Origin: a virus
Lineage: Duplodnaviria > Caudoviricetes
Length of the DNA: 64,000 nucleotides
Virus record (IMG/VR): IMGVR_UViG_3300020190_000054
Location: 633 to 64,632 of that record
Direction: 5' to 3' (one strand)
The notes under the pieces are model-generated. The model made no database searches, was not told the origin of the DNA, and saw only the letters and a list, made by a program, of their open reading frames with translations. Made by a program: the position numbers and the translations under genes. Below, piece after piece: positions 44,832-60,855 of this stretch; within the stretch, counting starts at the first letter, position 1; every line of letters begins with the position of its first letter.

Positions 44832-44839
44832 CTTATGCC

Positions 44840-44935
44840 ACGTCTTGGGCAGGCGAAGCGTAATGTTTAATCAATGGACTCACTTGGATTTATCCCAGTG
44901 GGTCCTACACACCTTCGGTGACGTTAAACTGCCTA
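44840..44935 (+). ncRNA. expanded copy of the dispersed pseudoknot element, with a 67-nt structured insert
   Basis: ACGTC/GACGT and TGGGCAG/CTGCCTA joined by a TAAA linker. Confidence 0.55.
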
Positions 44936-44963
44936 TTCTTTTTGGCTACACAGCATTCAACTC

Positions 44964-45116
44964 ATGGATCTTAATCAATTCGAAAATGACATTCCATCTG
45001 ATGCACTTGATGCATTAGCTGATCTTGCTTATGAGCAACGTCAAGCAATGATGGAAGAACTCATTACTCAACCATCTACAACTCATGAAACCATCCTCTA
45101 CTCCCCAACAACATGA
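44964..45116 (+). CDS. 50-aa acidic peptide (not in the ORF track)
   Basis: MDLNQFENDIPSDALDALADLAYEQRQAMMEELITQPSTTHETILYSPTT, preceded by a CAACTC leader. Confidence 0.5.
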   Translation: MDLNQFENDIPSDALDALADLAYEQRQAMMEELITQPSTTHETILYSPTT

Positions 45117-45185
45117 CATAGTTTTGGTATTGATATTCATTATCATTACCAGCGTTCAGCTCTTCATTCAATTCATTGCAGAACT

Positions 45186-45542
45186 ATGGCATTTCATCCA
45201 GTTACCCAAGAAATCGCAGAAGCTTTCGGCTATGAACCCATGTCCGAAGCTGAGCGTAATCAACAATTCCAGCTCACTCCAAACTACGACTCCATTCAAG
45301 ACGGAGTCCCAAAAGCTGGAAGTATCTATCTCAACAAATGCGGAGTCTATCGCTATTACTGGATCCCAGAAGGTGACAACTACACCGACGAAGAGAAAGG
45401 TGACCTCCAAGGCTGGTACGATATCCCGCTCAACGAAGACATCGAAGACTGGTGTTTCGATTCCTGCGCTTTCACGCCAGCGGAAGATGAAGTCGAACCT
45501 GACCACCCAGACAGCTGGCTTAGGCTTCTCGGTTTGATTTAA
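45186..45542 (+). CDS. acidic hypothetical protein
   Basis: 118 aa; C.TP..DEVEPDHPDSWL.LLGLI C-terminus. Confidence 0.65.
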   Translation: MAFHPVTQEIAEAFGYEPMSEAERNQQFQLTPNYDSIQDGVPKAGSIYLNKCGVYRYYWIPEGDNYTDEEKGDLQGWYDIPLNEDIEDWCFDSCAFTPAEDEVEPDHPDSWLRLLGLI

Positions 45543-45636
45543 GTATTGTTTGCCTACAAGAAACTGTCAATACTGCCCACAGCCTGGATCATTAAAGATC
45601 CGGTTGACTCTTCCAAATTCCAACGCACTTCCGACA

Positions 45637-45915
45637 ATGCAAAAGTATTTAAATGAGTATTTCGCAGTTTGCGAAGTCTTAGCTGATCTCAAAGCTATTA
45701 TCCAACGTGAAAATGAACGCCATGAAATGGATCAACACCTTGTTCCATCCATGCGTGATCTAATTGAAAACGAAATTATTCCTTTGCTTGAAAATGAGAT
45801 TGATGCAGATCCAACTCCTCAATATCTCTACGACGACACCGGTGGTGAACCTCCGATGACTGCAGCGGAAATACATCACGTTGCCTGGGTGCAACACCAG
45901 GCTTTGCACTCGTGA
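45637..45915 (+). CDS. hypothetical protein
   Basis: DPTP...GGEPPMTAAE.H..AW C-terminus. Confidence 0.6.
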   Translation: MQKYLNEYFAVCEVLADLKAIIQRENERHEMDQHLVPSMRDLIENEIIPLLENEIDADPTPQYLYDDTGGEPPMTAAEIHHVAWVQHQALHS

Positions 45916-46092
45916 TTTTATCTACCGCAAAGTTAAGAAACCATTAAGAAGTAAGGGCTGGTTCGCATTAGAACCTAAGTCTGGTGCGGCCAGACGCCCT
46001 TTGCTTCATCATTATTCCGGTTGGGCCTGAACCAAGCGGAATCCCCTTAAACAATCCACTGGCCAGTGGGTCCCTGCAGGAGACTCACTCAT

Positions 46093-46108
46093 TGTAACCA
46101 CAGTTACA
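46093..46108. promoter_or_regulatory. putative NtcA-binding site TGTAAC-N4-GTTACA
   Basis: Intergenic GTA-N8-TAC with extended palindrome. Confidence 0.45.
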
Positions 46109-46167
46109 GGTCCATGGCCAGGGGTTGACACATCTGGTAAACTTACAATTCATCACACCATCAACTT

Positions 46168-46386
46168 ATGTCACAGCTCAACGACGCACCCAAGCCCCGC
46201 ATCCCTGATGCAATGGATTTCCAACGGCTGCAAGCAATGCAGATCGTTGCCAAGATGAAGGAATCAGCTGACAAATACGGTGTTGGATTCGTTGGTGGAT
46301 TTGTATCTGCCAACGGTGAAAAATTCATGATGTCCAACATGTCAGATGAAGACACTTTAATGCTCTTGCCTGAAGATCTCCAATGA
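46168..46386 (+). CDS. hypothetical protein
   Basis: 72 aa ORF. Confidence 0.6.
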   Translation: MSQLNDAPKPRIPDAMDFQRLQAMQIVAKMKESADKYGVGFVGGFVSANGEKFMMSNMSDEDTLMLLPEDLQ

Positions 46387-46628
46387 AAGAAGTTATTTAC
46401 TACAAAATCATTTCAATTGATGGACGTGATCACACAATTAGTTGTTGTGATTATTCAGAGTCCATTAATGAATTAATTAAAGACAACATTCTTGAAGACA
46501 ATGATTCAGAAATTGTTGATCACATTTTTCAAGAGGAATGTACGTGACTAACAATCAGTCCGAACTAATTGATGCACTTATTGGAGATTTTAACTTTGAA
46601 CGTGTGTTAACTGAATCATGTACTTGGG

Positions 46629-46838
46629 ATGACTGACAAATCACCAATTAATTTTGATAGGACAATCCACGGCTTCAATATTACGGAACATGGCATTAAG
46701 TCTTATACAAAATCATTCAAGCTTGGACCGTTTCAGTTAACACTGAACGCCCGTAAGTCTGGTGTCCTTGGGTCGGTATCGATCCCTGGTACTGGCTTGT
46801 CCAAGCGAAACATCAACCTATTCAATTTCAACTCATGA
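46629..46838 (+). CDS. DUF4236-like small protein
   Basis: KSFKLGPFQLTLN...SVSIPGTGLS. Confidence 0.6.
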   Translation: MTDKSPINFDRTIHGFNITEHGIKSYTKSFKLGPFQLTLNARKSGVLGSVSIPGTGLSKRNINLFNFNS

Positions 46839-47050
46839 ATCCAACTGAACTCACACAACTTATTTGCATGATGGAAACACGGGGCGGTTCTTTTGTAGCC
46901 GCCATCGGTGCAGCCTTGCGTTATGCAGATCCTGTCAATCGGCAACGATTGCTTGATGCATTTCCAGATCTTGTAGAAAAGTATGGCCCCAACGGCATGT
47001 TTGCTGTTGCTCGTGCCATGGCAGAAGACCTTATCTCAAACAAATCATGA
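46835..47050 (+). CDS. hypothetical protein
   Basis: GGSFV.AIG.A...AD..N...L..AFP motif. Confidence 0.65.
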   Translation: MNPTELTQLICMMETRGGSFVAAIGAALRYADPVNRQRLLDAFPDLVEKYGPNGMFAVARAMAEDLISNKS

Positions 47051-47304
47051 CCGTCCTTGCAATCGAAGACACTTCTATTGATGGATCCCATGTCACAGTT
47101 ACAGCTGTTGTGGATGAGATGCGTCTCATCTACCGTGCAACTCAGTTTGAACCTGAGGAATATGCTCCTGCATTATGCAGCGCAAGCTTTGAGCTGGATC
47201 CAGAGGAACAAATTCCTGTTGATGAAGATGGCTTCTGTAGTTATCTTGATCAACGAGATTTGCTCTGGCAACTGGTCGACACTTCCGACTGGGATCTAGA
47301 TTGA
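47047..47304 (+). CDS. acidic hypothetical protein
   Basis: 85 aa; ATGA overlap. Confidence 0.6.
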   Translation: MTVLAIEDTSIDGSHVTVTAVVDEMRLIYRATQFEPEEYAPALCSASFELDPEEQIPVDEDGFCSYLDQRDLLWQLVDTSDWDLD

Positions 47305-47309
47305 TTCAC

Positions 47310-47336
47310 TGTCCTGAGCATGACATTAAACTGCTC
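47310..47336 (+). ncRNA. H-type pseudoknot element
   Basis: TGTC-CT-GAGCA-T-GACA-TTAAAC-TGCTC. Confidence 0.7.
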
Positions 47337-47365
47337 AACACTACGAACTCAACTCTGAACTCACC

Positions 47366-49114
47366 ATGCAATTCCGACTCCCAGAACAACTGCAAACTGA
47401 GTTGCTTGCGTATGATCCCAAGCTTAAAGCTCTAGCTCGCAGTCAAAATCCTAAGAAACAAACCAAGAAAGCAACGCATCCACTTGGTAATCCAAATGAT
47501 TTGATTCCAGATGATGTTGTTCGTGCATCGCTGCTTCAAGATGCAATCGATAATATCAACGGTAATCCTGCCGCAGGTAGGTTTCAAATCTTTACCAAAG
47601 TGGTAGATGTTGCTACACCCGAAGCACGTACCGTTACTGTTGCCATTCTTTACTACTATGAGCAATGCTGGTATGCAGCATGGCTTCCGCCCAAGGGTAA
47701 AGAAAATGAGTATCTCTACGGTTATGCATATGCATATAAAGATACTGCAACAGCATTGAAAATGGTATCACGCTCACTAAATGAAGAAAGACATGAAAAC
47801 CTAACAGTTGAAAAGCAATATGGACGCAGCAAATTTTTTGTGCGTCAAGCTGTTATTACAATTGAAGATGTGCGTAAATCTAAATATGATCAATCGGTAA
47901 GACGTTGGAATATTCCAGGTGTTACTTCGTATTATCGAAAATCGCAAGATATGTACAGAGCAATTACTGGATTCGAAGACGCATTGCGTAACAAAATTCC
48001 TACCTGGTCTGATTCCAGGGGGATCTTTGATCGTGTTCGTTGCACTGGAATCGGTAACCTTCTGATTGAAGAAGCAACACCCAATGTAGTTGCTGATCTT
48101 GAATCGTGGTTGCCTTCATATGAATCGTTGATGCAGATCATTGATTCAGATCCAGGGGAGTATCCATATCGTTTGGTAGAGTATCGTTCGTTTGCATCTA
48201 TTAAGCACATTATTAATACACCGTATTTCCGTAGGTGGATTCAACAACAATGTGATTTATCCATTGCTACATTCAATAATCCAGCCACAGAATATGCGGC
48301 AGATGTCAAGCGTCCGTGGTTGACAATCAAAGCATATCTCGGTGCTATCAATAGTATCTACGCAATCTGGCCTAATTGTCCCATTGATTACTATCAAAAT
48401 AATATTGACGTATTGCTCGGTGTTACTTTCCGTTTGAATCAAAACGAAAAGACATTTGAATGGCTACGTCAACATATGCCAATTGCATCATTTATCGGCA
48501 TCTTGTCTAAGTTTTACCAAGAACAATTGCAAGAGGCTAAAAAAGATAATCGTTTGCACCACCGCCGTAGCTTGTATTATAGCGAACGTTTGGGAAGAAA
48601 CGTATTTAGCTTCTCTGATCTCAGTGATGCACTATCAATGCTGACTCAGGTTCTATCCCATGGAGATCTTGAACCACCTAAGCGTTGGCGCATCGCTGAG
48701 TTCCATGATTATGTACAAGGTGAAGCCTGGAAGATCAAGAATCCAAATGAAGGTCTGCCCCAAGACTTGTTCCCGCAACCAGTCAAGGTGCAACTTGATG
48801 GTGAAACTTGGTTATTCTTCCAGCCATATGACACACACCAGCTGTCAAGCTGGGGTCAAGCTGTTCGTAATTGCATTGGTTCTGCTACGCATTATGCGGA
48901 AGACTGCAAGAAGAAGAAACACTTTATTGTTCTGTGCATGATTGACGGTAAGCCTCAGTTCACCATTCAACTCACCGTTGATATGGGTATGATGTCCGTC
49001 AAGCAAATTGCTGGCATTGCCAACAAGAGTCTCACGCAAGAACAGAAAGATCAATACACTCAAGCATTTGGCTTGGCCTTGCAATCTCGTAACGCTCAGC
49101 TAGTATCTGCGTAG
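47366..49114 (+). CDS. PcfJ-like domain protein
   Basis: 582 aa; C-terminal FHDYV...QLSSWGQAVRNCIGS..Y...C...FTIQL...VKQI.G..N. Confidence 0.7.
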   Translation: MQFRLPEQLQTELLAYDPKLKALARSQNPKKQTKKATHPLGNPNDLIPDDVVRASLLQDAIDNINGNPAAGRFQIFTKVVDVATPEARTVTVAILYYYEQCWYAAWLPPKGKENEYLYGYAYAYKDTATALKMVSRSLNEERHENLTVEKQYGRSKFFVRQAVITIEDVRKSKYDQSVRRWNIPGVTSYYRKSQDMYRAITGFEDALRNKIPTWSDSRGIFDRVRCTGIGNLLIEEATPNVVADLESWLPSYESLMQIIDSDPGEYPYRLVEYRSFASIKHIINTPYFRRWIQQQCDLSIATFNNPATEYAADVKRPWLTIKAYLGAINSIYAIWPNCPIDYYQNNIDVLLGVTFRLNQNEKTFEWLRQHMPIASFIGILSKFYQEQLQEAKKDNRLHHRRSLYYSERLGRNVFSFSDLSDALSMLTQVLSHGDLEPPKRWRIAEFHDYVQGEAWKIKNPNEGLPQDLFPQPVKVQLDGETWLFFQPYDTHQLSSWGQAVRNCIGSATHYAEDCKKKKHFIVLCMIDGKPQFTIQLTVDMGMMSVKQIAGIANKSLTQEQKDQYTQAFGLALQSRNAQLVSA

Positions 49115-49166
49115 TTTCCACGGCTTGCCGGTCTTAGTCTCGTACTAAGGCCGGTACCTCGTACTT

Positions 49167-49382
49167 ATGGAATACACTGACGATCAACTCCTTGCCATGG
49201 CACTTGGCAATATCGGTGATTTCATCCATGACAATTCACCACACTATGTGTTGATCGAAGAAGATTTTCGCAACGATGAGGACTACGACACTTGGGATTA
49301 TGGCACTGAGCCATTGCCCCAAGATCACACTTGGCGTCATACATCTATTGATGTTTGTGTAAGTCCAAGTGCGCCTGAGTAG
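49167..49382 (+). CDS. small acidic hypothetical protein overlapping the tRNA 5' end
   Basis: 71 aa ORF. Confidence 0.5.
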   Translation: MEYTDDQLLAMALGNIGDFIHDNSPHYVLIEEDFRNDEDYDTWDYGTEPLPQDHTWRHTSIDVCVSPSAPE

Positions 49383-49448
49383 CCCAGCGGAAGAGGCAAA
49401 CGACTTAAAATCGTTCCAGCGTGGGTTCGAATCCCACCTCAGGTACCA
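49373..49448 (+). tRNA. trnL: tRNA-Leu(UAA), intron-less, short variable loop, encoded CCA
   Basis: Acceptor GCCTGAG/CTCAGGT-A-CCA; anticodon arm AACGA-CT-TAA-AA-TCGTT; T arm GTGGG-TTCGAAT-CCCAC. Confidence 0.92.
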
Positions 49449-49475
49449 ACACACTTCATTTCATTTGGTTTTATC

Positions 49476-49706
49476 ATGCACATTCCTTTGTATAAAGACC
49501 CGTTTGAACCTGGTCGTAATTCTTTACTAACCAGAGAACAAAGAATTTATTTGTACAGACAACGCAAATCTGGAACAACGTTAAAACAGTTATCAATAGA
49601 ATTAAATATTACAAAAGAACGTATACGACAAATTTATTTTAAAACAAATAGAATTATTGATTCTATTAAAGTAATTAATAAAGAGAAGTATCAAACAATG
49701 GTTTAA
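49476..49706 (+). CDS. sigma-70 region-4-like HTH protein
   Basis: LTREQRI...G.TLKQLSIELNITKERIRQI. Confidence 0.7.
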   Translation: MHIPLYKDPFEPGRNSLLTREQRIYLYRQRKSGTTLKQLSIELNITKERIRQIYFKTNRIIDSIKVINKEKYQTMV

Positions 49707-49764
49707 TTTCTGGGCGTCCACATGGTGTAAGCCCCAGTTTAGTTCAATTCAATTCATTACAACA

Positions 49765-50127
49765 ATGGAATTCCTTTCTGCTTTTCGTCATTTCATCCCT
49801 GAGTTCCACGCTTACTCTGATGACGAGCAGCGTTACAACCTTGGAGCAACCTGGACAGCGGCTGACGGTCTTAAGGACTATCACAACTTCGAACTACGGT
49901 ACGTACGTAACTCAGAGCGTCTTGCTCTCCAGGGTGATCCCCAGCCTGATGGCAGCTGGAAGTATGTGGAACCTTGCGGACGTATTCACACTATGTCCGC
50001 AGAACGAGCCAAAGCTTTCATGGAGCAGACTCATCATCATGCCACCATCATGTGCGGGATGCTTGATCGCCTGAAAGATGCTGGTCTCATGGAACCGGTC
50101 ATTGACACGAACGCACAACCTGCCTAA
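49765..50127 (+). CDS. hypothetical protein
   Basis: 120 aa ORF with an A/C-rich leader. Confidence 0.65.
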   Translation: MEFLSAFRHFIPEFHAYSDDEQRYNLGATWTAADGLKDYHNFELRYVRNSERLALQGDPQPDGSWKYVEPCGRIHTMSAERAKAFMEQTHHHATIMCGMLDRLKDAGLMEPVIDTNAQPA

Positions 50128-50141
50128 TGTGTAGACGCACT

Positions 50142-50169
50142 TCCCCCCGTCCCCATCGGGGGGATTTTT
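50142..50169 (+). terminator. intrinsic terminator
   Basis: TCCCCCCG...CGGGGGGA followed by TTTTT. Confidence 0.7.
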
Positions 50170-50178
50170 AATTGCATT

Positions 50179-50502
50179 ATGGAAACCAACTCAAACCCAA
50201 ACAAAGGTATTGACCTTAACCTTGTCGATCAAGTTGTAGCTCACATCCCAGCTTGGACTTGGACTGTAGTCAAAAAACAACTGGTTGACGCACTGGTTAA
50301 TGCAATGCCTACCACGGTGCTTGAGAAATTGACAGGAGATCCAACCGACGATGATCGTGCATTGGAAATCCTGGATGATTATTACAAAACAAATGACATG
50401 AATCAAGAACTAATCATTGATGCGTTCAAAATCTTGGGTGAAGAGCACACTGTTTATTTGCTTGATGCTTTGCAGCTTGACAAGATCAAAGCGCCACAAT
50501 GA
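50179..50502 (+). CDS. hypothetical protein
   Basis: 107 aa ORF. Confidence 0.6.
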   Translation: METNSNPNKGIDLNLVDQVVAHIPAWTWTVVKKQLVDALVNAMPTTVLEKLTGDPTDDDRALEILDDYYKTNDMNQELIIDAFKILGEEHTVYLLDALQLDKIKAPQ

Positions 50503-50831
50503 AATGCCGCAATTGCAACAGTAAAAACACACGTGTCATTTGCACAGATCAATTTGATGTAGTAACTAAACGTTACTGCCGGTGTCTTGATTGCAACACT
50601 AGCTTTCGCACTGTCGAACGCTACGAAGTTGCTAAGCCTATACCGTTGAATCCAGCTCCCAACATTGGAGTAGACAACCCAAACTCAAGGCTTACCACCA
50701 GGGAAATCCTAATGATCAGACACTTACATCAAAAAGGATTAAGCAATGGTCAACTAGCAATTCGTTTTAATCAATGCCGTAGTACCATCAGTCGTGTTGT
50801 CAACTACAAAACTTACACAAACATTAAGTAA
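50499..50831 (+). CDS. NrdR-type zinc ribbon fused to an HTH
   Basis: MKCRNC...TRV...RYCRCLDC..SFRTVE, then NSRLT...GLSNGQLAIRFNQCRSTISRVV. Confidence 0.7.
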   Translation: MKCRNCNSKNTRVICTDQFDVVTKRYCRCLDCNTSFRTVERYEVAKPIPLNPAPNIGVDNPNSRLTTREILMIRHLHQKGLSNGQLAIRFNQCRSTISRVVNYKTYTNIK

Positions 50832-50836
50832 TTTAC

Positions 50837-51136
50837 ATGACTACTAAAGAACAACCTAAATTCAACATTGGTGATCGCGTAGCCGAGAAACCAAAGCCAC
50901 GTGCAATTTTGACGAATAAACCTGAGGTCAGGGAAAAGATTAAACCTTTTACCACTCAAAGGTATGGCACTGTACTTGATACGGTATATAAGCCGGTTTC
51001 CAATGGAAAGCGGGTTCCATACGTAAAGATTATGTGGGATTATTCCAGCTCTCCATCAGTTCATTCACAGAATAGAATCTGTCTTCAACAAGATTTGGCT
51101 GAGGAAATGGACAACTACTTCACTGCAACTTCATGA
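50837..51136 (+). CDS. SH3/KOW-like small protein
   Basis: KFNIGDRV...YGTV...VKIMWD. Confidence 0.55.
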   Translation: MTTKEQPKFNIGDRVAEKPKPRAILTNKPEVREKIKPFTTQRYGTVLDTVYKPVSNGKRVPYVKIMWDYSSSPSVHSQNRICLQQDLAEEMDNYFTATS

Positions 51137-51137
51137 C

Positions 51138-51770
51138 ATGACTGTTGAACTCACTTGGGCAACACCAAACGCCGAAGCACTCATCGTTGAAATGGCACGT
51201 GTCTCGGCACCAGAGAACCAAAGTAACTTGGATACAGCTCCAAGGTTATTGAAGTATCTTATTCGCAATCACCATTGGTCTCCATTTGAAATGGGAAACA
51301 TGTGCGTAAAGATACACACGGAACGTGACATCTCTGCACAAATACTTAGGCATCGATCATTTAGTTTTCAAGAATACAGTACGCGCTATGCAGAAGCGCA
51401 GGCTTACACTATGCCTCAATACCGTAGGCAAGACTTTGCTAATCGCCAAAATTCAATCGATGATTTATCTCCAAGTATGCTTGATGAATTAACTCGATTA
51501 ACGGACCAAGCGTTAACAAATGTTGATTCAATTTATAGACGCATGCTTAGTCTTGGTGTTGCGAAAGAAACAGCAAGGCGCATACTTCCACTTTGTACAA
51601 AAACAACTTTGTATATGAATGGAACTTTACGTAGCTGGATTCATTATCTTCAGCTGCGTACCCATGAATCAACCCAACTTGAACACAGGCTTATTGCAAA
51701 ACAAATCCAGGCTATTTTTATGGAACAATTCTCAGTAATAGCTGAGGCTGCCTTTGAAACTCACAACTGA
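51138..51770 (+). CDS. thyX: FAD-dependent thymidylate synthase
   Basis: HWSPFEM, QILRHRSFSFQEYSTRY, GVAKETARRILP, GTLRSWIHY..LR....Q.EHR. Confidence 0.97.
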   Translation: MTVELTWATPNAEALIVEMARVSAPENQSNLDTAPRLLKYLIRNHHWSPFEMGNMCVKIHTERDISAQILRHRSFSFQEYSTRYAEAQAYTMPQYRRQDFANRQNSIDDLSPSMLDELTRLTDQALTNVDSIYRRMLSLGVAKETARRILPLCTKTTLYMNGTLRSWIHYLQLRTHESTQLEHRLIAKQIQAIFMEQFSVIAEAAFETHN

Positions 51771-52092
51771 TTACGACATGATGACTTCTGAACTTCGTCG
51801 ACTTAACTACAAAAGGAGAGAGTCTCAGCTCCTGGAAGAACTCGAATGCTTTCATCCAGTGATTGAAAAAGTATCACGTGCCATAAGCGACTGGCAATCA
51901 GAGCGTGATTGGTATTTTCAAACGGATCGTGCCTTCAGGACGTTAGATGCTGTGGCAACTGAATTGAATAAGGAAGGGCATCGTGAAGCAGCAAGTTACT
52001 TGTTGCGCATCATCGGTAGTCACATACCCAAACCTCGCTCTGCTGACAGCAAGCCTGAAGAACCTCAACGTCTTAGCCAACTGTACTTCTGA
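51754..52092 (+). CDS. hypothetical protein
   Basis: 112 aa ORF. Confidence 0.5.
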   Translation: MKLTTDYDMMTSELRRLNYKRRESQLLEELECFHPVIEKVSRAISDWQSERDWYFQTDRAFRTLDAVATELNKEGHREAASYLLRIIGSHIPKPRSADSKPEEPQRLSQLYF

Positions 52093-52703: not shown

Positions 52704-52730
52704 TGTCCTAAGCATGACATTAAACTGTTA
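52704..52730 (+). ncRNA. H-type pseudoknot element
   Basis: TGTC-CT-AAGCA-T-GACA-TTAAAC-TGTT. Confidence 0.6.
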
Positions 52731-53572: not shown

Positions 53573-53669
53573 TTTAAAAAATCCATTACCATCTGTAAGT
53601 TCTTTTTGCTCCCCCTGACCCCCACCGGGGACCACCAGGGGGTACTCTCTTTATTAAAGAAACTTACTT

Positions 53670-53903: not shown

Positions 53904-55707
53904 GCGGTGGTACGTTGTTGATATTGAAACAGATAACCTTTACGACAAAGTTACAAAAATATATTGTATTGTTCTCCACGATGTCCAAGGAGAACAGACT
54001 TTTACTTATGGGCCTGATCGTATTGCTGACGGTCTTGAGCATATGGCTAACGCTCATGTGCTCATTGGTCACAACATCATCTTTTACGATCTGCCGGTTA
54101 TAAGAAAACTTTATCCTTTTTATACATTTAAAGCAGCTCGACTTATCGACACACTCATTTGCACTCGACTTATCTGGCCTAAGGAAGTTCTTTATGATCT
54201 CGACACAGAACAATATACGGAGGTTCCAAAGAATCTCTGTGGTTCAGCCTCGCTTAAAGCATGGGGCTACCGATTGGCAGACAATAAAATTGAATTTAAA
54301 GACTTCACGAAATTCTCTAACGAAATGTTGGAGTACTGCGTCCAGGACGTTAATGTCACCACTCAACTCTTTAGGCTTGTTCAAAAGCAAAACTATAGAG
54401 AGTCGGCATTACGGCTTGAACATGATTTTGCCATCTCCATTAATGAACAAATTAGAACAGGTTTTCCTTTTGATGTTGATGCATGCCTTGATCTTGTGGA
54501 TGTGCTTAGAACAAGACAAACGGAACTCGAAAGCAATTTAAAAGAAATCTTTCCGCCTATTAAACATGAAGAAGTATTTATTCCCAAAGTAAATAACGCT
54601 AAACGTGGTTATGTCAAAGGCGAACCATTCACTAAAGTCTTGTACCAAGAATTTAATCCTGGCTCTCGTGAACAAATTGTTGAAAGACTTAAAAACAAAT
54701 ACGGGTGGTCCCCTGCAAAAACTACGGATAAAGGCAATCCGGTGCTTAATGACGATGTACTGGAAGCACTTCCATACCCCGAAGCAAAACCACTTGCGGA
54801 ATACATGCTTGTCAAGAAACGTCTTGGGCAAATAGCTGATGGATCCAACGCATGGTTAAAGCTTGTCAACAATGACACCGGTTGTATTCACGGTGATGTA
54901 ATTACTAACGGCTGCATTACGGGTCGTTGTGCGCACCGTAATCCCAACATGGGTCAGGTACCTGCAAGTTATTCGCCATATGGAAAAGAATGCCGATCAT
55001 TATTCCATACGCCCCAGGGATGGGCATTGATTGGTGTTGATGCCAAAGCGTTGGAACTCAGATGCCTTGCTGGTTATTTGGCACATTGGGATAGTGGTGA
55101 ATACGCACGTATTGTTACTGATGAATCAATTGACATTCATGTTTATAACCAAGAGCGATTTGGTGTAGCTACCAGGGATATCAGTAAGCGTTTACTCTAT
55201 GGGCTTCTATATGGGTGTGGTGCATTGAAGGCTGGCACTATTATTGATCCGAATGAAAAAGATGAAATTGTTCTGCGTCGTATGGGAGGTAACGCAATTA
55301 ATTCATTCATGAATAGTGTGCCTGCTTTGCGTCAGCTTAAACAAAAGATTGAATCAACTATTCAAGAACGTAATTACTTGCGTGGGCTTGATGGCCGTGC
55401 ACTTTTTTGTAGATCTGAATTCAAAGGATTAAATGTTTTATTGCAATCATCTGGTGCATTAATTATGAAACAAGTTGTTATTGAACTTCACAAAACTATG
55501 TATGAAGAAGGGTATGTCTACGGCATGGACTGGCAGCAAAATGCCATGATCCATGACGAACTTCAATTGTCTTGTCCGTCTCACATGATTGACACTTTGA
55601 AACAAGAAGCGCTTGATTCATTTCCAAAAGCTCAGCAATTCTTTGGATTTCAATGTCTTATTGAGGGTGATGCCCATGTAGGATCCTGCTGGGCTGAGAC
55701 GCATTAG
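53842..55707 (+). CDS. family A DNA polymerase, T7 gp5-like (3'-5' exonuclease plus polymerase)
   Basis: ExoI DIETD, ExoII GHNIIFYD, ExoIII YCVQDV; TGRCAH..PNMGQVP; motif A DAKALELR; motif B RDISKRLLYGLLYG; motif C IHDE. Confidence 0.97.
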   Translation: MTQFSPVKNSKFAMKDVSGSERWYVVDIETDNLYDKVTKIYCIVLHDVQGEQTFTYGPDRIADGLEHMANAHVLIGHNIIFYDLPVIRKLYPFYTFKAARLIDTLICTRLIWPKEVLYDLDTEQYTEVPKNLCGSASLKAWGYRLADNKIEFKDFTKFSNEMLEYCVQDVNVTTQLFRLVQKQNYRESALRLEHDFAISINEQIRTGFPFDVDACLDLVDVLRTRQTELESNLKEIFPPIKHEEVFIPKVNNAKRGYVKGEPFTKVLYQEFNPGSREQIVERLKNKYGWSPAKTTDKGNPVLNDDVLEALPYPEAKPLAEYMLVKKRLGQIADGSNAWLKLVNNDTGCIHGDVITNGCITGRCAHRNPNMGQVPASYSPYGKECRSLFHTPQGWALIGVDAKALELRCLAGYLAHWDSGEYARIVTDESIDIHVYNQERFGVATRDISKRLLYGLLYGCGALKAGTIIDPNEKDEIVLRRMGGNAINSFMNSVPALRQLKQKIESTIQERNYLRGLDGRALFCRSEFKGLNVLLQSSGALIMKQVVIELHKTMYEEGYVYGMDWQQNAMIHDELQLSCPSHMIDTLKQEALDSFPKAQQFFGFQCLIEGDAHVGSCWAETH

Positions 55708-55942
55708 CTAATGACAAATCAACTAACTCCTGAACAAATCGATGCATTTCTAGATTTGCCATGTCAGTTAAAAAACCCGGATTGTTTGAACGTATTCAAA
55801 TGTCAGCTGGCAAGATGCCATTATGGAACTGGGCAGACAATGTAACTGTCGGACTGGCAGCGCTTGTCGTCTTGGTTGCCGTTGTGGCTGTGCTGCTAGT
55901 AACTTGTAAGGTTTAGTTACTAGTTCATTTGTTTTGTTACTT

Positions 55943-55969
55943 CGTCCCAGGTATGACGTTAAACTGCCT
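55943..55969 (+). ncRNA. H-type pseudoknot element
   Basis: CGTC-CC-AGGTA-T-GACG-TTAAAC-TGCCT. Confidence 0.7.
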
Positions 55970-55989
55970 TCTACTACTCTTTTGTATCT

Positions 55990-56802
55990 ATGAACTTTGT
56001 AAGCATTTGCGCACAAACAACTGAGGAGCCTCGCGAGGTTTACGTCAGTGCCACATCTACTGCAATTCGTTGCAATGTTTTGTTGCCTCCAGTAGGGAAC
56101 AAAGCACCTACTCCAATTGAACTTAACGTTTATGGAAAAAACTCAGAGCGGTTTGCTCGTACAACGAAGCACTCCAAGGTCTTCATTCATGGCGCAAAAT
56201 TACGCTTTGACCTTGACTCCAGAACGTATTCATTGCATGGAGGAGTTATCGCTACGGTTGATGAAACGTTCCCTATCTTTAACACAGTCATCCTCAGTGG
56301 CCGTTGCGTTAAAGACATCTATCGCGATGACGAACGCGCTTTCAAAACAACCACTGATGGATTGATGGTCTGCAATCAAACCTTATCAGTAAGTACTGGT
56401 AAGAACCAAGCAGATCTGTTTAACTTTTATGCAATTAATACAAGTCAAGACAAGTTAAACAATGCGGAACTACTTGTTAATTTCACGCGTAAAGGTGTTG
56501 GCCTCACGATTAATGGCCGTTTGGTTACTGATGAATGGAATGATTCTCAAACCAAAGAACGCAAGCATGCTACCAAGATCCAATTGGTAAGTATGACCCT
56601 GGCTCCCAAGGCTTCGCTGCCTAATAAAGATGGTGAAGGTCGGGAGATTAAACCGCAGACAACAGTTAACGGTGCAGGGAAAGTTGCTTCGCTTTGGGGC
56701 GGAAAAACATTGGATGACAATCCTTGGGATCAGACGAGCGGGCTACCGGATTTGCCTGGTCAGTACGGTGCTGCACCTGATCTTGACAACGAACCTTTCT
56801 AA
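55990..56802 (+). CDS. ssb: single-stranded DNA-binding protein with tandem OB folds
   Basis: Two OB-like units (MNFVSICAQ..., FNTVILSGR...KG..LTINGRLVTDEW); acidic tail ending DLDNEPF. Confidence 0.8.
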   Translation: MNFVSICAQTTEEPREVYVSATSTAIRCNVLLPPVGNKAPTPIELNVYGKNSERFARTTKHSKVFIHGAKLRFDLDSRTYSLHGGVIATVDETFPIFNTVILSGRCVKDIYRDDERAFKTTTDGLMVCNQTLSVSTGKNQADLFNFYAINTSQDKLNNAELLVNFTRKGVGLTINGRLVTDEWNDSQTKERKHATKIQLVSMTLAPKASLPNKDGEGREIKPQTTVNGAGKVASLWGGKTLDDNPWDQTSGLPDLPGQYGAAPDLDNEPF

Positions 56803-56815
56803 TTAACTACTCACC

Positions 56816-57079
56816 ATGACTTCTGAATCACTAATTGAATTCCAACGGGGAATTGACTTTGAGGAATTAACGCTTCAAGATTGTATTGCTATTAATTTTT
56901 ATTTGGATAACGTTGTAGAACTTTGTGTTAAAGGAGAAACAAATGCAGATCAAGTAAGAAATAACTTAGATCTATTAGCCAAATCTGCATATTCTATTGC
57001 AGATGTTTTTTGTCAAATGCGTAAAAGAATACGAGAATCAATTGAAGAAACAAATGAAGAAGAAAGCGAGGTTGCGTAA
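56816..57079 (+). CDS. acidic hypothetical protein
   Basis: 87 aa; AYSIAD...MR motif. Confidence 0.55.
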   Translation: MTSESLIEFQRGIDFEELTLQDCIAINFYLDNVVELCVKGETNADQVRNNLDLLAKSAYSIADVFCQMRKRIRESIEETNEEESEVA

Positions 57080-57312
57080 TGGATAATTCAAAACTTGTGT
57101 TTAGTTACACTGATGAAGATTCAAAGATTACTTATGAATCGATGGGTGTAACAACAGATGAAGTAATGCATCACGTTGTTTGTTTTCTGTTGTCTATGGG
57201 TTACGCACGGGAGAGTATTCACTCAGCCATGCAAGAAATCGTAGAGGAACATGAAGACTATTTACGAAATGAGCCTAACTATAAACTTGAATTGCCGCCA
57301 GACGTAGTCTGA
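57079..57312 (+). CDS. acidic hypothetical protein
   Basis: 77 aa; FLLSMGY motif. Confidence 0.55.
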   Translation: MDNSKLVFSYTDEDSKITYESMGVTTDEVMHHVVCFLLSMGYARESIHSAMQEIVEEHEDYLRNEPNYKLELPPDVV

Positions 57313-57316
57313 AGGC

Positions 57317-57344
57317 ACGTCCTGGGATGACGTTAAAAGCATCC
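57317..57344 (+). ncRNA. variant pseudoknot element
   Basis: ACGTC-CTG-GGAT-GACGT-TAAAAGC-ATCC. Confidence 0.55.
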
Positions 57345-58436
57345 ATTCATCACAACGAAATCACCATGAGTGAACCTACGATTGCTGAATTAGTTGATTC
57401 CACTACTAACTACTTGAAACCTACTAAGACTATGACTGTGAAGAAAACTTTTGCCCTTGCCACCCGTGGCCTGGATTCTTTCAAACTTTTCCAAGATAAG
57501 CAATTCGTCTCCGGCTACCAAAACCTCGTCACCATCCAACCCCTTAACAAATCGAAGACACGAGGTTGGTTCGTGCGGAAGTCAGATCTGGACACTTGTG
57601 GATGGAACGCCACTGAAAGTGACTTTGCTAAAGGTTCAGTCATTTGGGACTACAAGCAAACTTTCGGTATGGCTCCCAATACTTCAGTGGAAGAAGGGCT
57701 CAATTTTGTTGAGCCTCGAATTCAAATCCTTCTGCGTTCCCCGCTTATGGTAGAAGAAGCTAAAGGAATGAGGCAGACAATTGGTACCTTTGATAATCCA
57801 GAGGTTAAAGAACTTTGGGAAGCTGACAAGATTGCAGCTGATCTTGAAAAAAGTAAGGGTAAAATGCATGATCGTAAGTACAGTGTACGTACAAAATACT
57901 TGGTGTACGTTCTGACCCAGGACAATAAGCGAGCCCATAAGATCCCAATGGTTCTTACCTTAAAAGGATTGAATGGTACTGATATTTCCGAAAAGGTTCG
58001 GATGTATGAAAAAGAAATGTCCAAGTGTTTAAGCAAAGCTTTGGATTCAGAAATTCCTCTTGCATTCAATGAAAAGTTCTACGCCACTACCGTATTTGCT
58101 CCGGTACTTGCCAATGAGATGCGTGGCGCCAACAACGTTGAGATCTGCGCAATTGAATCTTTTGACATCCCTGATTACAGCTCACAAGATGAAGCGATTG
58201 CTTCCTTGAATCGCCTCAGCATTCCCGATGAAGATCGTGAATCTACCTGGAAATTCCAGGATATGTTTGCGGACTACATCAATCAACATGCACGGCAAGA
58301 TGCTGAAAAGCTAGGTGGTGCTTATGGAATCAAAGAGGGCGTTGAGATTCTGCCTGTTACGCGCACCATGGAAACTGAAGTCAAGGCTTTGCCTGGTCGT
58401 GATGCAGTAACAGGAGAAGACGACTCACTCCTTTGA
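57327..58436 (+). CDS. conserved cyanobacterial-type protein (DUF5895-like); true start probably 57366 or 57432
   Basis: PRIQILLRSPL, TKYLVYVL..DNK..H.IP..LTLKG, F.P. Confidence 0.6.
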   Translation: MTLKASIHHNEITMSEPTIAELVDSTTNYLKPTKTMTVKKTFALATRGLDSFKLFQDKQFVSGYQNLVTIQPLNKSKTRGWFVRKSDLDTCGWNATESDFAKGSVIWDYKQTFGMAPNTSVEEGLNFVEPRIQILLRSPLMVEEAKGMRQTIGTFDNPEVKELWEADKIAADLEKSKGKMHDRKYSVRTKYLVYVLTQDNKRAHKIPMVLTLKGLNGTDISEKVRMYEKEMSKCLSKALDSEIPLAFNEKFYATTVFAPVLANEMRGANNVEICAIESFDIPDYSSQDEAIASLNRLSIPDEDRESTWKFQDMFADYINQHARQDAEKLGGAYGIKEGVEILPVTRTMETEVKALPGRDAVTGEDDSLL

Positions 58437-58688
58437 TTTGATTGGGGGGTTAGCCAGATCGTCTTCATTAATGGAAACGTTATTGAAGATAAACATGTCT
58501 TGGACTAATCCCCTTATTACTCCTTGTCTGTTAGTAGCGATCTGCGCAAGCATGGTCGCTATTTCTTTTAAAGTACTAACTGAATTACATTCATCAATCG
58601 TACGTTTGACTGTTTCATGCCAGAACTTATCGTTAAGCGAAGGTTCTATTTGAAACCTAGTCAACGGTACATACTTAATTTCTTCCAT
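58425..58688 (-). CDS. second NblA-like protein
   Basis: EPSLNDKFW...KRTIDEC...TLKEIA..L......Q..IR.L resembles picocyanobacterial/cyanophage NblA; lone minus-strand gene with a TAAAAT box. Confidence 0.5.
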   Translation of the reverse strand: MEEIKYVPLTRFQIEPSLNDKFWHETVKRTIDECNSVSTLKEIATMLAQIATNRQGVIRGLVQDMFIFNNVSINEDDLANPPIKSKE

Positions 58689-58768
58689 TGTTTGTATTCA
58701 GTTGTACTTAATTTTACTTCCATAGTAAACAACAATTTTTTTCTTTTAAATGTATTAAGAATTACACC

Positions 58769-58972
58769 ATGAAATCAGAATACAAAGCTGCATTAAAAGC
58801 AGCGGCTCCTCTTGGCTTGGTTGGTGCAGGGGTTCTTGCTTTAATAGGCAATCCTGCTGCCTGGGCGGTGCTTGCTTACAGCACGTATCGACTTGGTAAA
58901 AACGCGTACCAAGAAGAACAACTTCGTGGTAGGCTGCGCCAGTCAGGAAAAGACTACGACCTTTTCATCTGA
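58769..58972 (+). CDS. small membrane protein
   Basis: Hydrophobic segment LGLVGAGVLALIG. Confidence 0.5.
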   Translation: MKSEYKAALKAAAPLGLVGAGVLALIGNPAAWAVLAYSTYRLGKNAYQEEQLRGRLRQSGKDYDLFI

Positions 58973-58997
58973 CTTTTATTACTATTTCAACTTAACC

Positions 58998-59951
58998 ATG
59001 ACAACAACTTTAACTGAATTAAATGAAGCTCAAAAACTTATTTACACACGTTCAAGCATCGCTCGGGCATTCCCTGAGTTCGATGATACGAATGTCGCCC
59101 GAATCTATCTACATCAAGATTCTTGCCGTGTGGCTTATCGCGACGGTGCTGAGGTTGATTATCCACGTCAACAAATAAAAAATTCTTATCAAGACTTTAC
59201 TACCAGGCTTAAAAATTTCTTTTCGTATTTGGGACCTAACTATCGTGGGCCCAGCATCTGGCACCACAATGCCTACATCATGTTTAAAGGATGGTCTTAT
59301 GCACACTCGTTGGGGCATCGTTCGTTTAATGCGCAGCTTCAAGCTCAGTGGGCTGATAAGTTTATTCATTTATCAGACCAAGCTAAACTTCGTGCACTAT
59401 TGCAATCTGATCAAACTGATCTGGGATATTTGGTTGCCCCTGATGGTTTCCAAATTATTGAGCAGGCTCGCCTTGGCAGCTGCGCAGATGGCGAGGAAGA
59501 CTCAGATTCGGCCTCGCAAAAAACTGCGTCATTACCATCGTGTACTTGCGGCTCATTTCAACGACAACTAAACAATTTGTCTGAACTTCAACAAGAAATT
59601 CCTGGGTACCAGCCATCTTGTATCCACTTGACTTGGTTTAAAAAGTACAGGGAATTGCTTTGTCGTCGTACTGAAATCAGAAACGCATGCCCTGCGTATG
59701 CTCCTGATAAATGCGTGGCTTGGTGGTATGCGCCACCATCTGAGGCAACCGGTCATGGTCGATTCCTTTTGCTTCATACCAAGCATGGGGCGCAGGCTCC
59801 GATTACTCATTGGCGAACTTACAAACCAAACGACATCTTTACAGAAGATGATGCTTGGTCTTTGTTTGACAACATGATGGAAGCAGGCTATGTTCCTTTC
59901 CCAGGAACTTCATTGCCTCAACTTAAAGCCGCAACCAACAAAGATGGATGA
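58998..59951 (+). CDS. SWIM-like zinc-finger protein
   Basis: SCTCGSF...SCIHL. Confidence 0.65.
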   Translation: MTTTLTELNEAQKLIYTRSSIARAFPEFDDTNVARIYLHQDSCRVAYRDGAEVDYPRQQIKNSYQDFTTRLKNFFSYLGPNYRGPSIWHHNAYIMFKGWSYAHSLGHRSFNAQLQAQWADKFIHLSDQAKLRALLQSDQTDLGYLVAPDGFQIIEQARLGSCADGEEDSDSASQKTASLPSCTCGSFQRQLNNLSELQQEIPGYQPSCIHLTWFKKYRELLCRRTEIRNACPAYAPDKCVAWWYAPPSEATGHGRFLLLHTKHGAQAPITHWRTYKPNDIFTEDDAWSLFDNMMEAGYVPFPGTSLPQLKAATNKDG

Positions 59952-60246
59952 ACGCGTCCAACGTCTATTAGAGTCAGGAATGGCCGAACCATTTCCCACA
60001 ACCAACACCACCCTTAAACGCACTCACAAAACTATGGATCAAACAAGCGACGGTCGTTATCGTTACGATGTCTATATCGATGAAGATGTACATTGGATTC
60101 TTGTTGAACTTGGCGCTCGTAGCAAGATGCACCAGGAGGATTATGTTGAGCAAATCTTGACTGAATATGCTTGCCTTGCATTAGAAAGGCGATCCACTAC
60201 AACGGAGGCTGACCATGACGAGCTGGGTGAACAAACTAAAGATTGA
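59944..60246 (+). CDS. hypothetical protein (possible ribbon-helix-helix)
   Basis: VYIDEDVH..LVELGAR......YVEQIL. Confidence 0.45.
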   Translation: MDERVQRLLESGMAEPFPTTNTTLKRTHKTMDQTSDGRYRYDVYIDEDVHWILVELGARSKMHQEDYVEQILTEYACLALERRSTTTEADHDELGEQTKD

Positions 60247-60412
60247 CGTTGTCGATGAAGAAGATGGGTCTTGTACTATTCACATCGAATGGGACGAAAC
60301 AGATCCGGACTTAACCCTATGGACTAGCTGGGGCAAAGACGGGCAAAAATCTTTTGTTCTTGAAGCTTTACAAAATGCCATTGACAATGCGCTTTCCAAT
60401 CATGACTCTTGA
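60215..60412 (+). CDS. hypothetical protein
   Basis: EEDGS.TI.IEWDE.DP motif. Confidence 0.55.
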   Translation: MTSWVNKLKIDVVDEEDGSCTIHIEWDETDPDLTLWTSWGKDGQKSFVLEALQNAIDNALSNHDS

Positions 60413-60806
60413 AACTTACGGACTTCAGTTTGATGCGTACAAAGAGCTCTTCTTGTCTGAAGCAGCTCACTTACTTTATTTGTACTACGAGTTTGAAATG
60501 ATGAGCAATGAGCAATCTCAACATCTGTATGGATGGTCAAAGCTATGTGAAAAAACAAGGTACGATTTATTTTCCGATGCCATATATTCAACCAATGATA
60601 GAGCCCGTGCAAAACAAAAGAAAGAAAACCCAGAAACGGTCAAGGACGATTATGAGTTTATGTCTCTTGGCACAAAAGAAATAAAGGAGGAGATCCAGGC
60701 GATCAATGCCAAGATCGAAGCCTTGGTCGATTACGTTGGCAATCTAACTAACGTAATTAAAGCTGGGCTTACGGACTTGGCTGACACCCCCGAGGGTGGG
60801 GCTTGA
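60402..60806 (+). CDS. hypothetical protein
   Basis: ORF in the operon with a C-terminal coiled coil. Confidence 0.55.
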   Translation: MTLETYGLQFDAYKELFLSEAAHLLYLYYEFEMMSNEQSQHLYGWSKLCEKTRYDLFSDAIYSTNDRARAKQKKENPETVKDDYEFMSLGTKEIKEEIQAINAKIEALVDYVGNLTNVIKAGLTDLADTPEGGA

Positions 60807-60828
60807 CACGCACTATAGACTAGACACG

Positions 60829-60855
60829 CGTCCTGGTCACGACGGTAAACTGACC
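60829..60855 (+). ncRNA. H-type pseudoknot element
   Basis: CGTC-CT-GGTCA-C-GACG-GTAAAC-TGACC. Confidence 0.7.

Follow-up and report, generated by a model that had tools for sequence, protein, structure and literature searches.

Compact H-type RNA pseudoknots between the cistrons of a Synechococcus phage relative, and their likeness to the coremin exoribonuclease-resistant RNA

The element and its six copies in the window

The DNA analysed here, a stretch of 64,000 nucleotides referred to throughout as the window, is nearly the whole of a 64.6-kb IMG/VR virus record (IMGVR_UViG_3300020190_000054). Its sole close named relative is Synechococcus phage S-EIV1, with 80% identity across one gene and synteny across the whole replication region. 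Between 44 and 62 kb the + strand codes for small open reading frames (ORFs), a PcfJ-like protein, a tRNA, thymidylate synthase, a Gp88-like protein, a family A DNA polymerase, a single-stranded DNA-binding protein (SSB), a DUF5895 protein, and a Gp157-like protein. Six copies of a small pseudoknot, five compact and one expanded, lie on this strand in intergenic leaders, where they divide the early and replication region into six blocks of genes, each about 1.3–5 kb long.

The compact copies have the layout N-GTC / C-Y / 4–5 variable bases with a final A / one base / GAC-N / TTAAAC / complement of the variable bases. As a predicted part of the + strand mRNA, each copy would fold to a 27-nt H-type RNA pseudoknot, in which stem 1 (S1) is N-GUC/GAC-N, loop 1 (L1) is C-Y, stem 2 (S2) is made of 4–5 variable Watson-Crick pairs closing on an invariant A-U, loop 2 (L2) is 1 nt, and loop 3 (L3) is UUAAAC. 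The copies, and an example of the leader that follows them, are as follows, with scores from a covariance model built for the element.

44841..44934, + strand: expanded copy; fold z -3.5 versus shuffles
47310..47336, + strand: compact copy TGTC-CT-GAGCA-T-GACA-TTAAAC-TGCTC; covariance model 47.7 bits
47337..47365, + strand: G-poor, CA-rich leader without Shine-Dalgarno sequence, from pseudoknot to start codon; other copies have similar leaders
52704..52730, + strand: compact copy TGTC-CT-AAGCA-T-GACA-TTAAAC-TGTTA, with 4 of 5 S2 pairs; covariance model 39.2 bits
55943..55969, + strand: compact copy CGTC-CC-AGGTA-T-GACG-TTAAAC-TGCCT; covariance model 41.6 bits
57318..57344, + strand: variant copy CGTC-CTG-GGAT-GACG-TTAAAAGC-ATCC; covariance model 20 bits, E 0.005
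60829..60855, + strand: compact copy CGTC-CT-GGTCA-C-GACG-GTAAAC-TGACC; covariance model 37.4 bits

These are the copies described in the initial annotation, the start of one being corrected from 57317 to 57318, and the compensatory pairings given there for both stems are indeed present. S1 is NGTC/GACN throughout, with an outer pair of T-A in two copies and C-G in four. The S2 pairings of the compact copies are GAGCA/TGCTC, AGCA/TGTT, AGGTA/TGCCT, GGAT/ATCC, and GGTCA/TGACC, and that of the expanded copy is GGGCA/TGCCT.

The 47310 copy is 5 nt past a stop codon (47302-47304) and 29 nt ahead of ATG 47366 of the PcfJ-like gene (47366-49114). The copy at 55943 is 26 nt past the stop of the ORF at 55761-55916 and 20 nt ahead of ATG 55990 of the SSB gene (55990-56802), while that at 60829 is 22 nt past the stop of the ORF at 60354-60806 and 22 nt ahead of ATG 60878, which opens a conserved 37-aa ORF followed by the Gp157-like gene (61002-61703). 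The 57318 copy, which has a 7-nt loop, an 8-nt L3, and a 4-bp S2, is 5 nt past a stop codon (57310-57312) and 21 nt ahead of ATG 57366 of the DUF5895-like gene. This sub-variant is kept at the orthologous sites in all relatives (L006:11043, L007/L008/L009:11040, and L010:11084; L numbers denote sequences outside the window), with an L3 of 8 nt (TTAAAAGC or TTAAACTC) and a shifted stem 2, hence no L2 base left. The 52704 copy lies in a 400-nt intergenic region and is followed by a conserved hairpin (~52735-52755) and then the Gp88-like gene, for which there is an in-frame ATG at 52751, yet the N-termini of relatives indicate a start at 52794. The hairpin, CATATAAGT-TTT-ACTTATGTG on the + strand, is kept in the closest relative (L006 ~6462-6482).

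The expanded copy is the least certain of the six. It has S1 CGTC at 44841-44844, L1 TT, and the 5' strand of S2, GGGCA, at 44847-44851, and at the position of L2, one base in the compact copies, there is a self-folding insert of 68 nt with hairpins of its own (44852-44919). The 3' half (44920-44934) consists of GACG at 44920-44923, L3 TTAAAC at 44924-44929, and the 3' strand of S2, TGCCT, at 44930-44934. It starts 9 nt past the stop of the ORF at 44397-44831 and ends 29 nt ahead of ATG 44964. Fold prediction lengthens its S2 to 7 bp and adds an insert hairpin; in the nested minimum-energy fold an internal AGCGU pairs with ACGUU, which competes with stem 1.

The six sites stand out from the rest of the window. 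The sequence GACRKTAAA has 7 matches against 2.54 +/- 1.53 expected, and six of these are the pseudoknot sites; the seventh (22452, minus strand, GACATTAAA) is in coding sequence without the motif and is not a copy. A 21-nt pattern has 4 exact matches and 7 with up to two mismatches, against 1.29 expected, and 7 was reached in none of 100 shuffles. When the whole window was searched with the covariance model, filters off, there were 15 matches at E <= 10. Five of them, with E <= 0.005 and all on the + strand, are the five compact copies; the expanded copy is a partial match only (E 0.95), and the remaining nine are noise (E 2.7–9.8). The scan of Rfam 15 that had been proposed for STAXI, pistol, ToxI, and preQ1 gave no family match: nothing relevant came up at gathering score in the whole window, nor at E <= 10 in 44000-61500 or in stretches of 69 nt and 121 nt surrounding copies, and preQ1-I, pistol, ToxI, and the other families gave chance matches only (snoZ242 at 7.6 bits, mir-2229 at 14.5 bits).

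Selection on the fold and its occurrence elsewhere

That this is an H-type RNA pseudoknot selected for its structure, on the sense strand, is strongly supported, and the earlier suggestion that structure is selected and acts as a single strand is thereby upheld by covariation in two sets of copies, by shuffles, by strand, and by the kind of mismatch tolerated. Nine further related viral contigs were picked via their SSB protein, that is, independently of the pseudoknot motif. From the window, S-EIV1, and these nine, 26 distinct copies of fixed length were taken with a pattern blind to S2 and to the outer S1 pair. In this set 95.7% of cells are paired and 5 pairs vary on both sides, which was equalled in 0 of 500 shuffles; when the register is slid by 1–3 columns only 19–52% of cells are paired. 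GUC/GAC is unchanged in 26 of 26, and the outer S1 pair covaries (C-G 14, U-A 8, A-U 2, G-C 1, U-G 1). In the 11 related sources (267 kb) a covariance model built from these copies finds 47 matches, every one on the gene strand. S-EIV1 itself carries copies at the orthologous places (PcfJ-like, Gp88-like, SSB, and DUF5895 genes) and elsewhere.

The same pairing is seen well beyond this group. A scan of viral contigs with the pattern GTCCT-N6-GAC-N-TTAAAC matched at least 115 stretches, and among the 96 distinct 27-mers S2 has 5/5 pairs in 72 and 4/5 in 15, where swapped partners give 5/5 in 24%. A slightly tighter pattern matched at least 120 stretches of bacterial and archaeal species genomes, with at least 125 matches, in which all 4 free S2 pairs are formed in 87, 3 in 26, and two or fewer in 12. 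Across the 117 distinct bacterial copies 90.7% of cells are paired, again equalled in 0 of 500 shuffles, with position 27 an A facing C in 13. The outer S1 pair is formed in only 71 of the 117; in essence, therefore, stem 1 consists of three pairs, GUC/GAC. S2 cells with G-U exceed those with A-C, by 12 to 2 in the 26-copy set and by 60 to 20 in a further set, which argues for a folded sense strand rather than a duplex or the opposite strand.

The unpaired bases C8, A14, and UUAAAC are invariant or almost so. Swaps in the near-invariant S1 are rare: GGAC/GUCC occurs in L012, and in Vibrio phage D456 (L251:1496-1528) a pair that is invariant elsewhere is swapped, giving CUC/GAG. The copy in Escherichia phage flopper (L250:1498-1530) is degenerate, with only two possible stem 1 pairs, although its stem 2 is perfect and AUAAAC is present; no genes are annotated in the 1.2 kb around it.

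The position of the element between cistrons is tightly defined in the S-EIV1 group, for which 40 distinct copies were counted (for the 52704 copy the script used ATG 52751). An ORF ends nearby upstream in 36 of them, and the gap from its stop codon to the element is 5 nt in 22, 6 in 2, 7 in 3, and 11–41 in 9; it is never less than 5 nt, and the upstream ORF never overlaps the element. The leader from element to ATG is 19–25 nt in 29 of the 40 and 27–29 nt in 7, and these leaders are G-poor (5.2% G versus 20.7% regionally), with a Shine-Dalgarno-like 4-mer in one of 40. When five nucleotides separate it from the A-site codon, the first pair of the stem is at the mouth of the ribosome's mRNA channel, and an initiating 30S subunit needs roughly 20 nt 5' of the start codon. 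The 5-nt gap after the stop and the approximately 20 nt before the start would mean that the element could stay folded between ribosomes, occupying the smallest room in which the fold may survive while ribosomes terminate and initiate on both sides of it.

The phyla of the bacterial hosts were counted from the first 80 titles of the at least 120 matched stretches. Among these 80 there are about 32 Bacillota, 13 Desulfobacterota or other 'delta' lineages, 10 Omnitrophota, 5 Planctomycetota, 4 Patescibacteria, 2 Chloroflexota, and 1 cyanobacterium; Bacteroidota and Proteobacteria are few, several of them being chance matches, and no Actinomycetota are among those listed. Isolated phages with a copy include the cyanomyoviruses S-H35, S-RIM4, and S-CRM01, Nostoc phage NMeng1, the thermophilic phage D6E, Streptococcus prophages, and Bacillus phage Edson. 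The BLAST search of isolated phages with a 33-nt copy returns near-identical copies only and is not a census.

In these other phages the surroundings differ. Of the ORFs after the element in low-G+C phage contigs, 6 of the 10 tested code for a head scaffolding protein, and RtcB and endolysin are also found; the start codon is 7 to 134 nt past the element in other phage groups, with an ordinary Shine-Dalgarno sequence present. Several copies start a few bases after an intrinsic terminator. In three of four loci scanned a tRNA gene is directly past the element on the same strand, the element being 0–14 nt ahead of it (L023:1811-1916, Asn; L019:11828-11931, Asn; L225:2625-2739, Gln), and in L023 an endolysin gene follows the element and the tRNA. 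The initial annotation had placed the copies ahead of early and replication genes, which is correct for the window and does not extend to a specificity, given that outside it the genes past the element include those for scaffold and capsid proteins, tRNAs, and cellular genes. These contexts, together with the variable distances, indicate that the element has no fixed association with early genes, with any single gene family, or with the starts of translation.

In Omnitrophota, Planctomycetota, Desulfobacterota, and one gammaproteobacterial metagenome-assembled genome (MAG), a conserved ORF of 16–18 codons precedes the element (L131, L147, L150, L160, L166, L168, L173, L178, L182, L135, and others). 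Its peptide is M-K-R-F-M-I-P-R-V-A-H-C-K-E-G-C, and its stop is a few bases before, at, or inside the pseudoknot. The variation in its third codon positions suggests that it is coding. Downstream there are Rrf2-type regulators (MKLITRDTDYALRAL...), a hybrid-cluster-protein-like gene, ferredoxin-like genes, and others. From its sequence, this micro-ORF with the element looks like a cellular leader-peptide/pseudoknot control unit.

In the leaders of scaffold genes (L058, L081, L075, L130, L146, L244) there is a second conserved hairpin between the element and the Shine-Dalgarno sequence, with a covarying stem (TTCG/CGAA, ATCCG/CGGAT, TTTG/CAAA), the loop GTTC-N3-5-GAGT, and then GGG; that of L058 has no match in Rfam.

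The window has other features apart from the element. At 24800-25043 on the minus strand, in a zone of long minus-strand ORFs, the group I intron model is matched over its full length (RF00028, 94.2 bits, E 5.6e-23), and a tRNA gene (RF00005, 58.8 bits) lies at 49373-49445 on the + strand, in the replication block between the PcfJ-like gene and small ORFs. The word TTGACACGC occurs at 42159-42174 and 60803-60813, the two ends of the early region; at 42159 it sits within a terminator-like hairpin, and it may be a promoter -35 element or another common signal.

Likeness to coremin and a possible role in mRNA decay

A full-text search with the conserved 10-mer led to the literature on coremin, or xrRNA_C. 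This exoribonuclease-resistant RNA (xrRNA) is known from beny-, cucumo-, and many other eukaryotic RNA viruses (PMC6546385; PMC10520033), and its minimal form is GUCCGAAGACGUUAAACUAC plus a hairpin (PMC10520033). Its parts are a GUC/GAC hairpin 1 with a CGAA loop, the spacer UUAAACUAC, of which A16-A20 are essential, and a second hairpin of any sequence (PMC10520033; PMC6546385). Hairpin 1 has 3–4 bp, G-U-C with G-A-C, and its pairing is needed (PMC6546385); resistance to the exoribonuclease Xrn1 also requires the AAACU of the spacer and a loop following the rules YGAD or YGNNAD (PMC10520033; PMC6546385). These rules were derived on loops of 4 and 6 nt; loops of 7 and 8 nt can function, a single 8-nt loop having been assayed (PMC10520033). 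Xrn1 halts at the nucleotide preceding hairpin 1, and the activity in vitro needs no cofactor protein (PMC10520033; PMC6546385). The structure was unsolved as of 2023, a non-canonical loop-spacer pseudoknot being suspected (PMC10520033; PMC10321173). A screen gave two Watson-Crick coremins (xrRNA_WCC) with a canonical three-pair loop-spacer helix, Xrn1-resistant in vitro, for which one natural case, in Sanxia picorna-like virus 5, was known to the authors; in both coremin types a second hairpin of at least 4 bp is strictly required for Xrn1 resistance (PMC10321173).

Hairpin 1 of coremin is present in all six window copies. The first base of the loop is C in 6/6 and the penultimate base is A in the five compact copies; the last base is U in four and C in one (60829), and the second base is U or C, never G. 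The spacer is UUAAAC-U in four of the six copies, GUAAAC-U in 60829, and UUAAAAGC in 57318, and the positions of A20-C21 of coremin are occupied by stem 2 bases. A second hairpin cannot be formed by the G-poor leaders after five of the six copies. The sole exception is 52704, where the hairpin downstream, starting 4–5 nt after stem 2, is a possible counterpart of coremin hairpin 2.

Forms closer to coremin itself are found in related and other viral contigs. At L014:9955, ahead of an SSB gene, the sequence reads CGUC-CGAAAU-GACG-UUAAACUAC, and this hexaloop form has been assayed as Xrn1-resistant in a beet necrotic yellow vein virus context (PMC10520033). When viral contigs were scanned with tetraloop and hexaloop spacing, the loop bases being left free, the loop in at least 120 tetraloop matches was CGAA in 81 and CAAA in 17, with AC as the next two bases in 83, and at least 71 of at least 121 hexaloop matches fit YGNNAD (CGAAAU 21, CGCAAU 18, and others). 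These frequencies indicate that natural copies in these viral contigs follow the rules derived by mutagenesis. A hairpin follows the canonical tetraloop copies in 27 of 38 cases versus 14 of 38 when shuffled. Some of the contigs with canonical copies are short and may be RNA viruses; others are 20–200 kb. In the tailed phage L366 the canonical tetraloop form is directly past a terminator, ahead of the scaffold, major head, and adaptor genes. In the same contig (L366:1256-1325) two words, ACGGGAGACACC and AAAACTGAAA, are repeated, each being present twice in a span of 70 nt ahead of the scaffold gene.

From these sequence likenesses, the phage element could quite plausibly be a prokaryotic-virus variant of the coremin Xrn1-resistant RNA, in which a loop enlarged to 8 nt forms canonical pairs with the bases past the spacer, at the place of coremin's own second hairpin. 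Coremin itself is known; its presence in phages and bacteria, and the class with a long stem 2 and no hairpin 2, are apparently new, as no report of coremin-type elements in phages or bacteria was found in the literature searched; further natural cases may stand in the supplementary tables to the coremin papers.

The role favoured here, for which the case is evenly balanced, is a fold-dependent roadblock that would shield downstream cistrons from 5'-end-dependent decay. Placed at the 5' edge of a cistron or of a group of cistrons, the fold would act mechanically as a block in one direction, with no protein needed. An upstream endonucleolytic cut, or removal of the 5' pyrophosphate, would set off decay by RNase J where the host has RNase J, and possibly by 5'-tethered RNase E elsewhere; this would halt just upstream of S1, and the downstream genes would keep a defined and stable 5' end. 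The five-pair stem 2 may replace hairpin 2, the complementary strand coming from the enlarged loop. Cyanobacteria generally have RNase J, and one study is said to concern a cyanobacterial RNase J; the presence of the enzyme in this group is one reason for favouring the roadblock. The others are that the defining activity of the common core is the stalling of an exonuclease without protein, and that at least one other xrRNA class, the flaviviral, stops purified bacterial RNase J1 (PMC5760640). The core shared with coremin thus lends real, if indirect, support to the block to 5'-3' exonucleases that was among the roles first suggested. The placement past terminators and stop codons, ahead of highly expressed or separately regulated genes, fits this role.

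Several points weigh against it. Hairpin 2, required for Xrn1 resistance, is missing after five of the six window copies, and the second loop base in these copies is Y where the coremin rule requires G. A loop-final C, as in 60829, abolished the resistance of the assayed hexaloop (PMC10520033), ordinary frameshifting pseudoknots of like size fail to stop Xrn1 (PMC10321173), and no assay of coremin itself with RNase J was found in the parts of the coremin papers drawn upon. RNase J (TIGR00649) was above cut-off in three of five host genomes, the two misses being MAGs of 1.2–1.3 Mb. Vibrio and E. coli, the hosts of phages bearing variant copies, are not known to have RNase J. A copy directly ahead of a tRNA gene would gain little from exonuclease protection, and the tight spacing to the start codon fits a translational role too.

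Such a role for the ribosome is the main rival, though it is judged rather unlikely; it may coexist with a roadblock, as the two are not exclusive. The element would stop post-termination ribosomes from sliding into the next cistron, uncoupling neighbours, or would mark the 5' border of a single-stranded landing pad for initiation that has no Shine-Dalgarno sequence; in the cellular leaders, the pseudoknot would be melted or not by a ribosome on the tiny upstream ORF. The stop-codon gap of exactly 5 nt in 22 of 36 copies, the short leaders poor in G and nearly devoid of Shine-Dalgarno-like words, and, in Omnitrophota, Planctomycetota, and Desulfobacterota, the conserved ORF of 16–18 codons that precedes Rrf2 and other genes and ends near or in the motif all favour this explanation. 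Coremin is also reported to block scanning ribosomes and to stimulate -1 frameshifting (PMC10520033; PMC10321173), and xrRNA_WCC does this without the second hairpin, the frameshifting-positive candidates behind its variants having been picked by expression in E. coli (PMC10321173). However, the spacing can equally be read as the minimum room for a fold beside ribosomes, other phage groups place the start codon anywhere from 7 to 134 nt away with an ordinary Shine-Dalgarno sequence, and three copies are directly ahead of tRNA genes.

It is improbable that the element is a site recognized by a protein, be it a phage regulator, SSB in the manner of T4 gene 32 autoregulation, or a host endonuclease for which it would be a processing mark. 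The unpaired bases C8, A14, and UUAAAC are strongly conserved, one copy is ahead of the ssb gene, and T4 gene 32 mRNA has an unstructured leader like that past the phage copies. But the same loop and spacer sequences are present in phages, in bacteria of at least 7 phyla, and in eukaryotic RNA viruses, which have no phage-encoded protein in common, and the conserved bases are those needed for an activity that is seen in vitro without a cofactor protein. This recurrence of the loop sequences makes unlikely both the regulator or SSB site and the decoy for type III toxins that the initial annotation had offered.

An element acting as DNA, either a host or phage promoter or a single-stranded structure for replication or of the N4 hairpin promoter type, is very improbable. 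The copies are indeed upstream of and co-oriented with genes, sometimes right past terminators where a new start would be needed, part of the element (ATGACR) is like a -35 hexamer, and there is enrichment of T at -13, of A at -12, and of T at -8. However, the last of these T and the R at both -7 and -6 belong to upstream stop codons, and the upstream word TAGAYTGA was rejected as a -10 box on this account. A scan of 41100-61000 for sigma-70 promoters and terminators gave 22 promoter sites against 39 expected and no consistent site at the copies, the covariation rich in G-U suggests a folded sense single strand, and the same core works as RNA in RNA viruses.

Just as improbable is a small-molecule sensor of the size of the preQ1-I riboswitch, or an RNA that serves type III toxin endoribonucleases as a decoy or mimics their antitoxin. 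The element does resemble the smallest riboswitches in being a compact H-type pseudoknot whose L3 is A-rich and whose unpaired bases are invariant, and the A-rich motif at ToxN-type cleavage sites resembles one in the element, but Rfam, including preQ1 and ToxI, gives no match even at E <= 10 on 69 nt, the downstream genes are mutually unrelated (PcfJ-like, Gp88-like, SSB, DUF5895, scaffold, RtcB, tRNAs, Rrf2), no expression platform is seen, and the copies are dispersed where type III antitoxins are in tandem. A self-cleaving ribozyme, brought to mind by a hammerhead-like GUC and a pistol-like hairpin followed by UUAAA, was dropped, as there is no model match and no conserved second domain.

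Returning to the roadblock, it is possible, on a somewhat weaker footing than the role itself, that coremin-type RNA is a mechanical-roadblock module shared across domains, present in very large numbers in tailed phages as well as in the cellular leaders of Bacillota, Desulfobacterota, Omnitrophota, Planctomycetota, and others, and that it is the first natural exoribonuclease-resistant (RNase J-resistant) RNA of prokaryotes. Fold-based RNAs of this kind are known from eukaryotic RNA viruses, and none was found for bacteria or phages in the literature searched. Such a module would set stable 5' ends and insulate cistrons against decay and against ribosomes, and a block to RNase J, or to 5'-end-dependent RNase E, would explain the stability of single cistrons in long phage transcripts (scaffold, capsid, and replication genes). 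It would also provide a portable stabilizer of 27 nt for bacterial synthetic biology. Through its hundreds of natural compensatory changes, the class with the 8-nt loop would disclose the architecture of the coremin pseudoknot and a long stem 2 in place of the second hairpin; natural covariation fixes the register of the coremin loop-spacer pairing and hints at the job of that hairpin. One may ask whether the core common to phages, bacteria, and the RNA viruses of plants, fungi, and insects descends from one ancestor, has been transferred, or results from convergence on a very small and optimal fold.

Comparison with known systems

The initial annotation had compared the architecture with that of STAXI (RF01728), which is a tandem array of 2–3 pseudoknot units with UUCG tetraloops in Enterobacteriales (PMC2864571). 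There is a likeness in that both are small pseudoknots near ssb and other DNA-handling genes of mobile elements. The window copies, however, are dispersed rather than tandem and are without UUCG loops, and they have no sequence or model match to it even in the 69-nt scan, so that the comparison does not hold.

The 5' mRNA stabilizers of Gram-positive bacteria and the leader pseudoknot of T4 gene 32 are likewise structures at the 5' edge that control the stability or the translation of a message. They have other sequences and folds, are reliant on a bound ribosome or on gp32, and do not have the conserved core in common. The luteoviral -1 frameshifting pseudoknots of beet western yellows virus and potato leafroll virus are H-type and of like size, with a short L1 and an A-rich L3 along stem 1, but these are in coding sequence past a slippery site and do not withstand Xrn1 (PMC10321173), whereas the window copies are intergenic and past stop codons. 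The coremin authors themselves compare coremin with the luteoviral pseudoknots (PMC10321173).

Coremin and the phage element have the same hairpin 1, the same loop-first C and loop-penultimate A, and the same UUAAAC-U spacer, with loops of 4, 6, 7, and 8 nt and with intergenic, often repeated, copies. The copies adjacent to tRNA genes recall the coremin ahead of tRNA-like ends in plant viruses. The window copies differ from coremin in having loops of 8 nt (7 nt in 57318) with Y and not G as the second base, in the replacement of CUAC at the end of the spacer by a covarying Watson-Crick stem 2 of 4–5 bp, and in having no obligatory second hairpin. The hosts also differ, being bacterial and without Xrn1, and the genomes are DNA, so that the site is an mRNA leader and not the 3' untranslated region of a viral genome.

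In pairing, xrRNA_WCC resembles the phage element, with a canonical antiparallel loop-spacer stem 2 on a coremin scaffold and a short L1. The register is common to both, the invariant A14-U26 of the phage element being the 7-19 pair, and the equivalent of 6-20 is also present. Stem 2 of xrRNA_WCC has 3 bp (6-20, 7-19, and 8-18) in a 4-nt loop, and hairpin 2 is still required for Xrn1 resistance; in contrast, stem 2 of the phage element has 4–5 bp running outward from 7-19, with the equivalent of 8-18 (U15, C25) unpaired, three extra pairs, and hairpin 2 missing. Against the single natural case of xrRNA_WCC known to its authors, there are at least hundreds of copies of the phage and bacterial type reported here.

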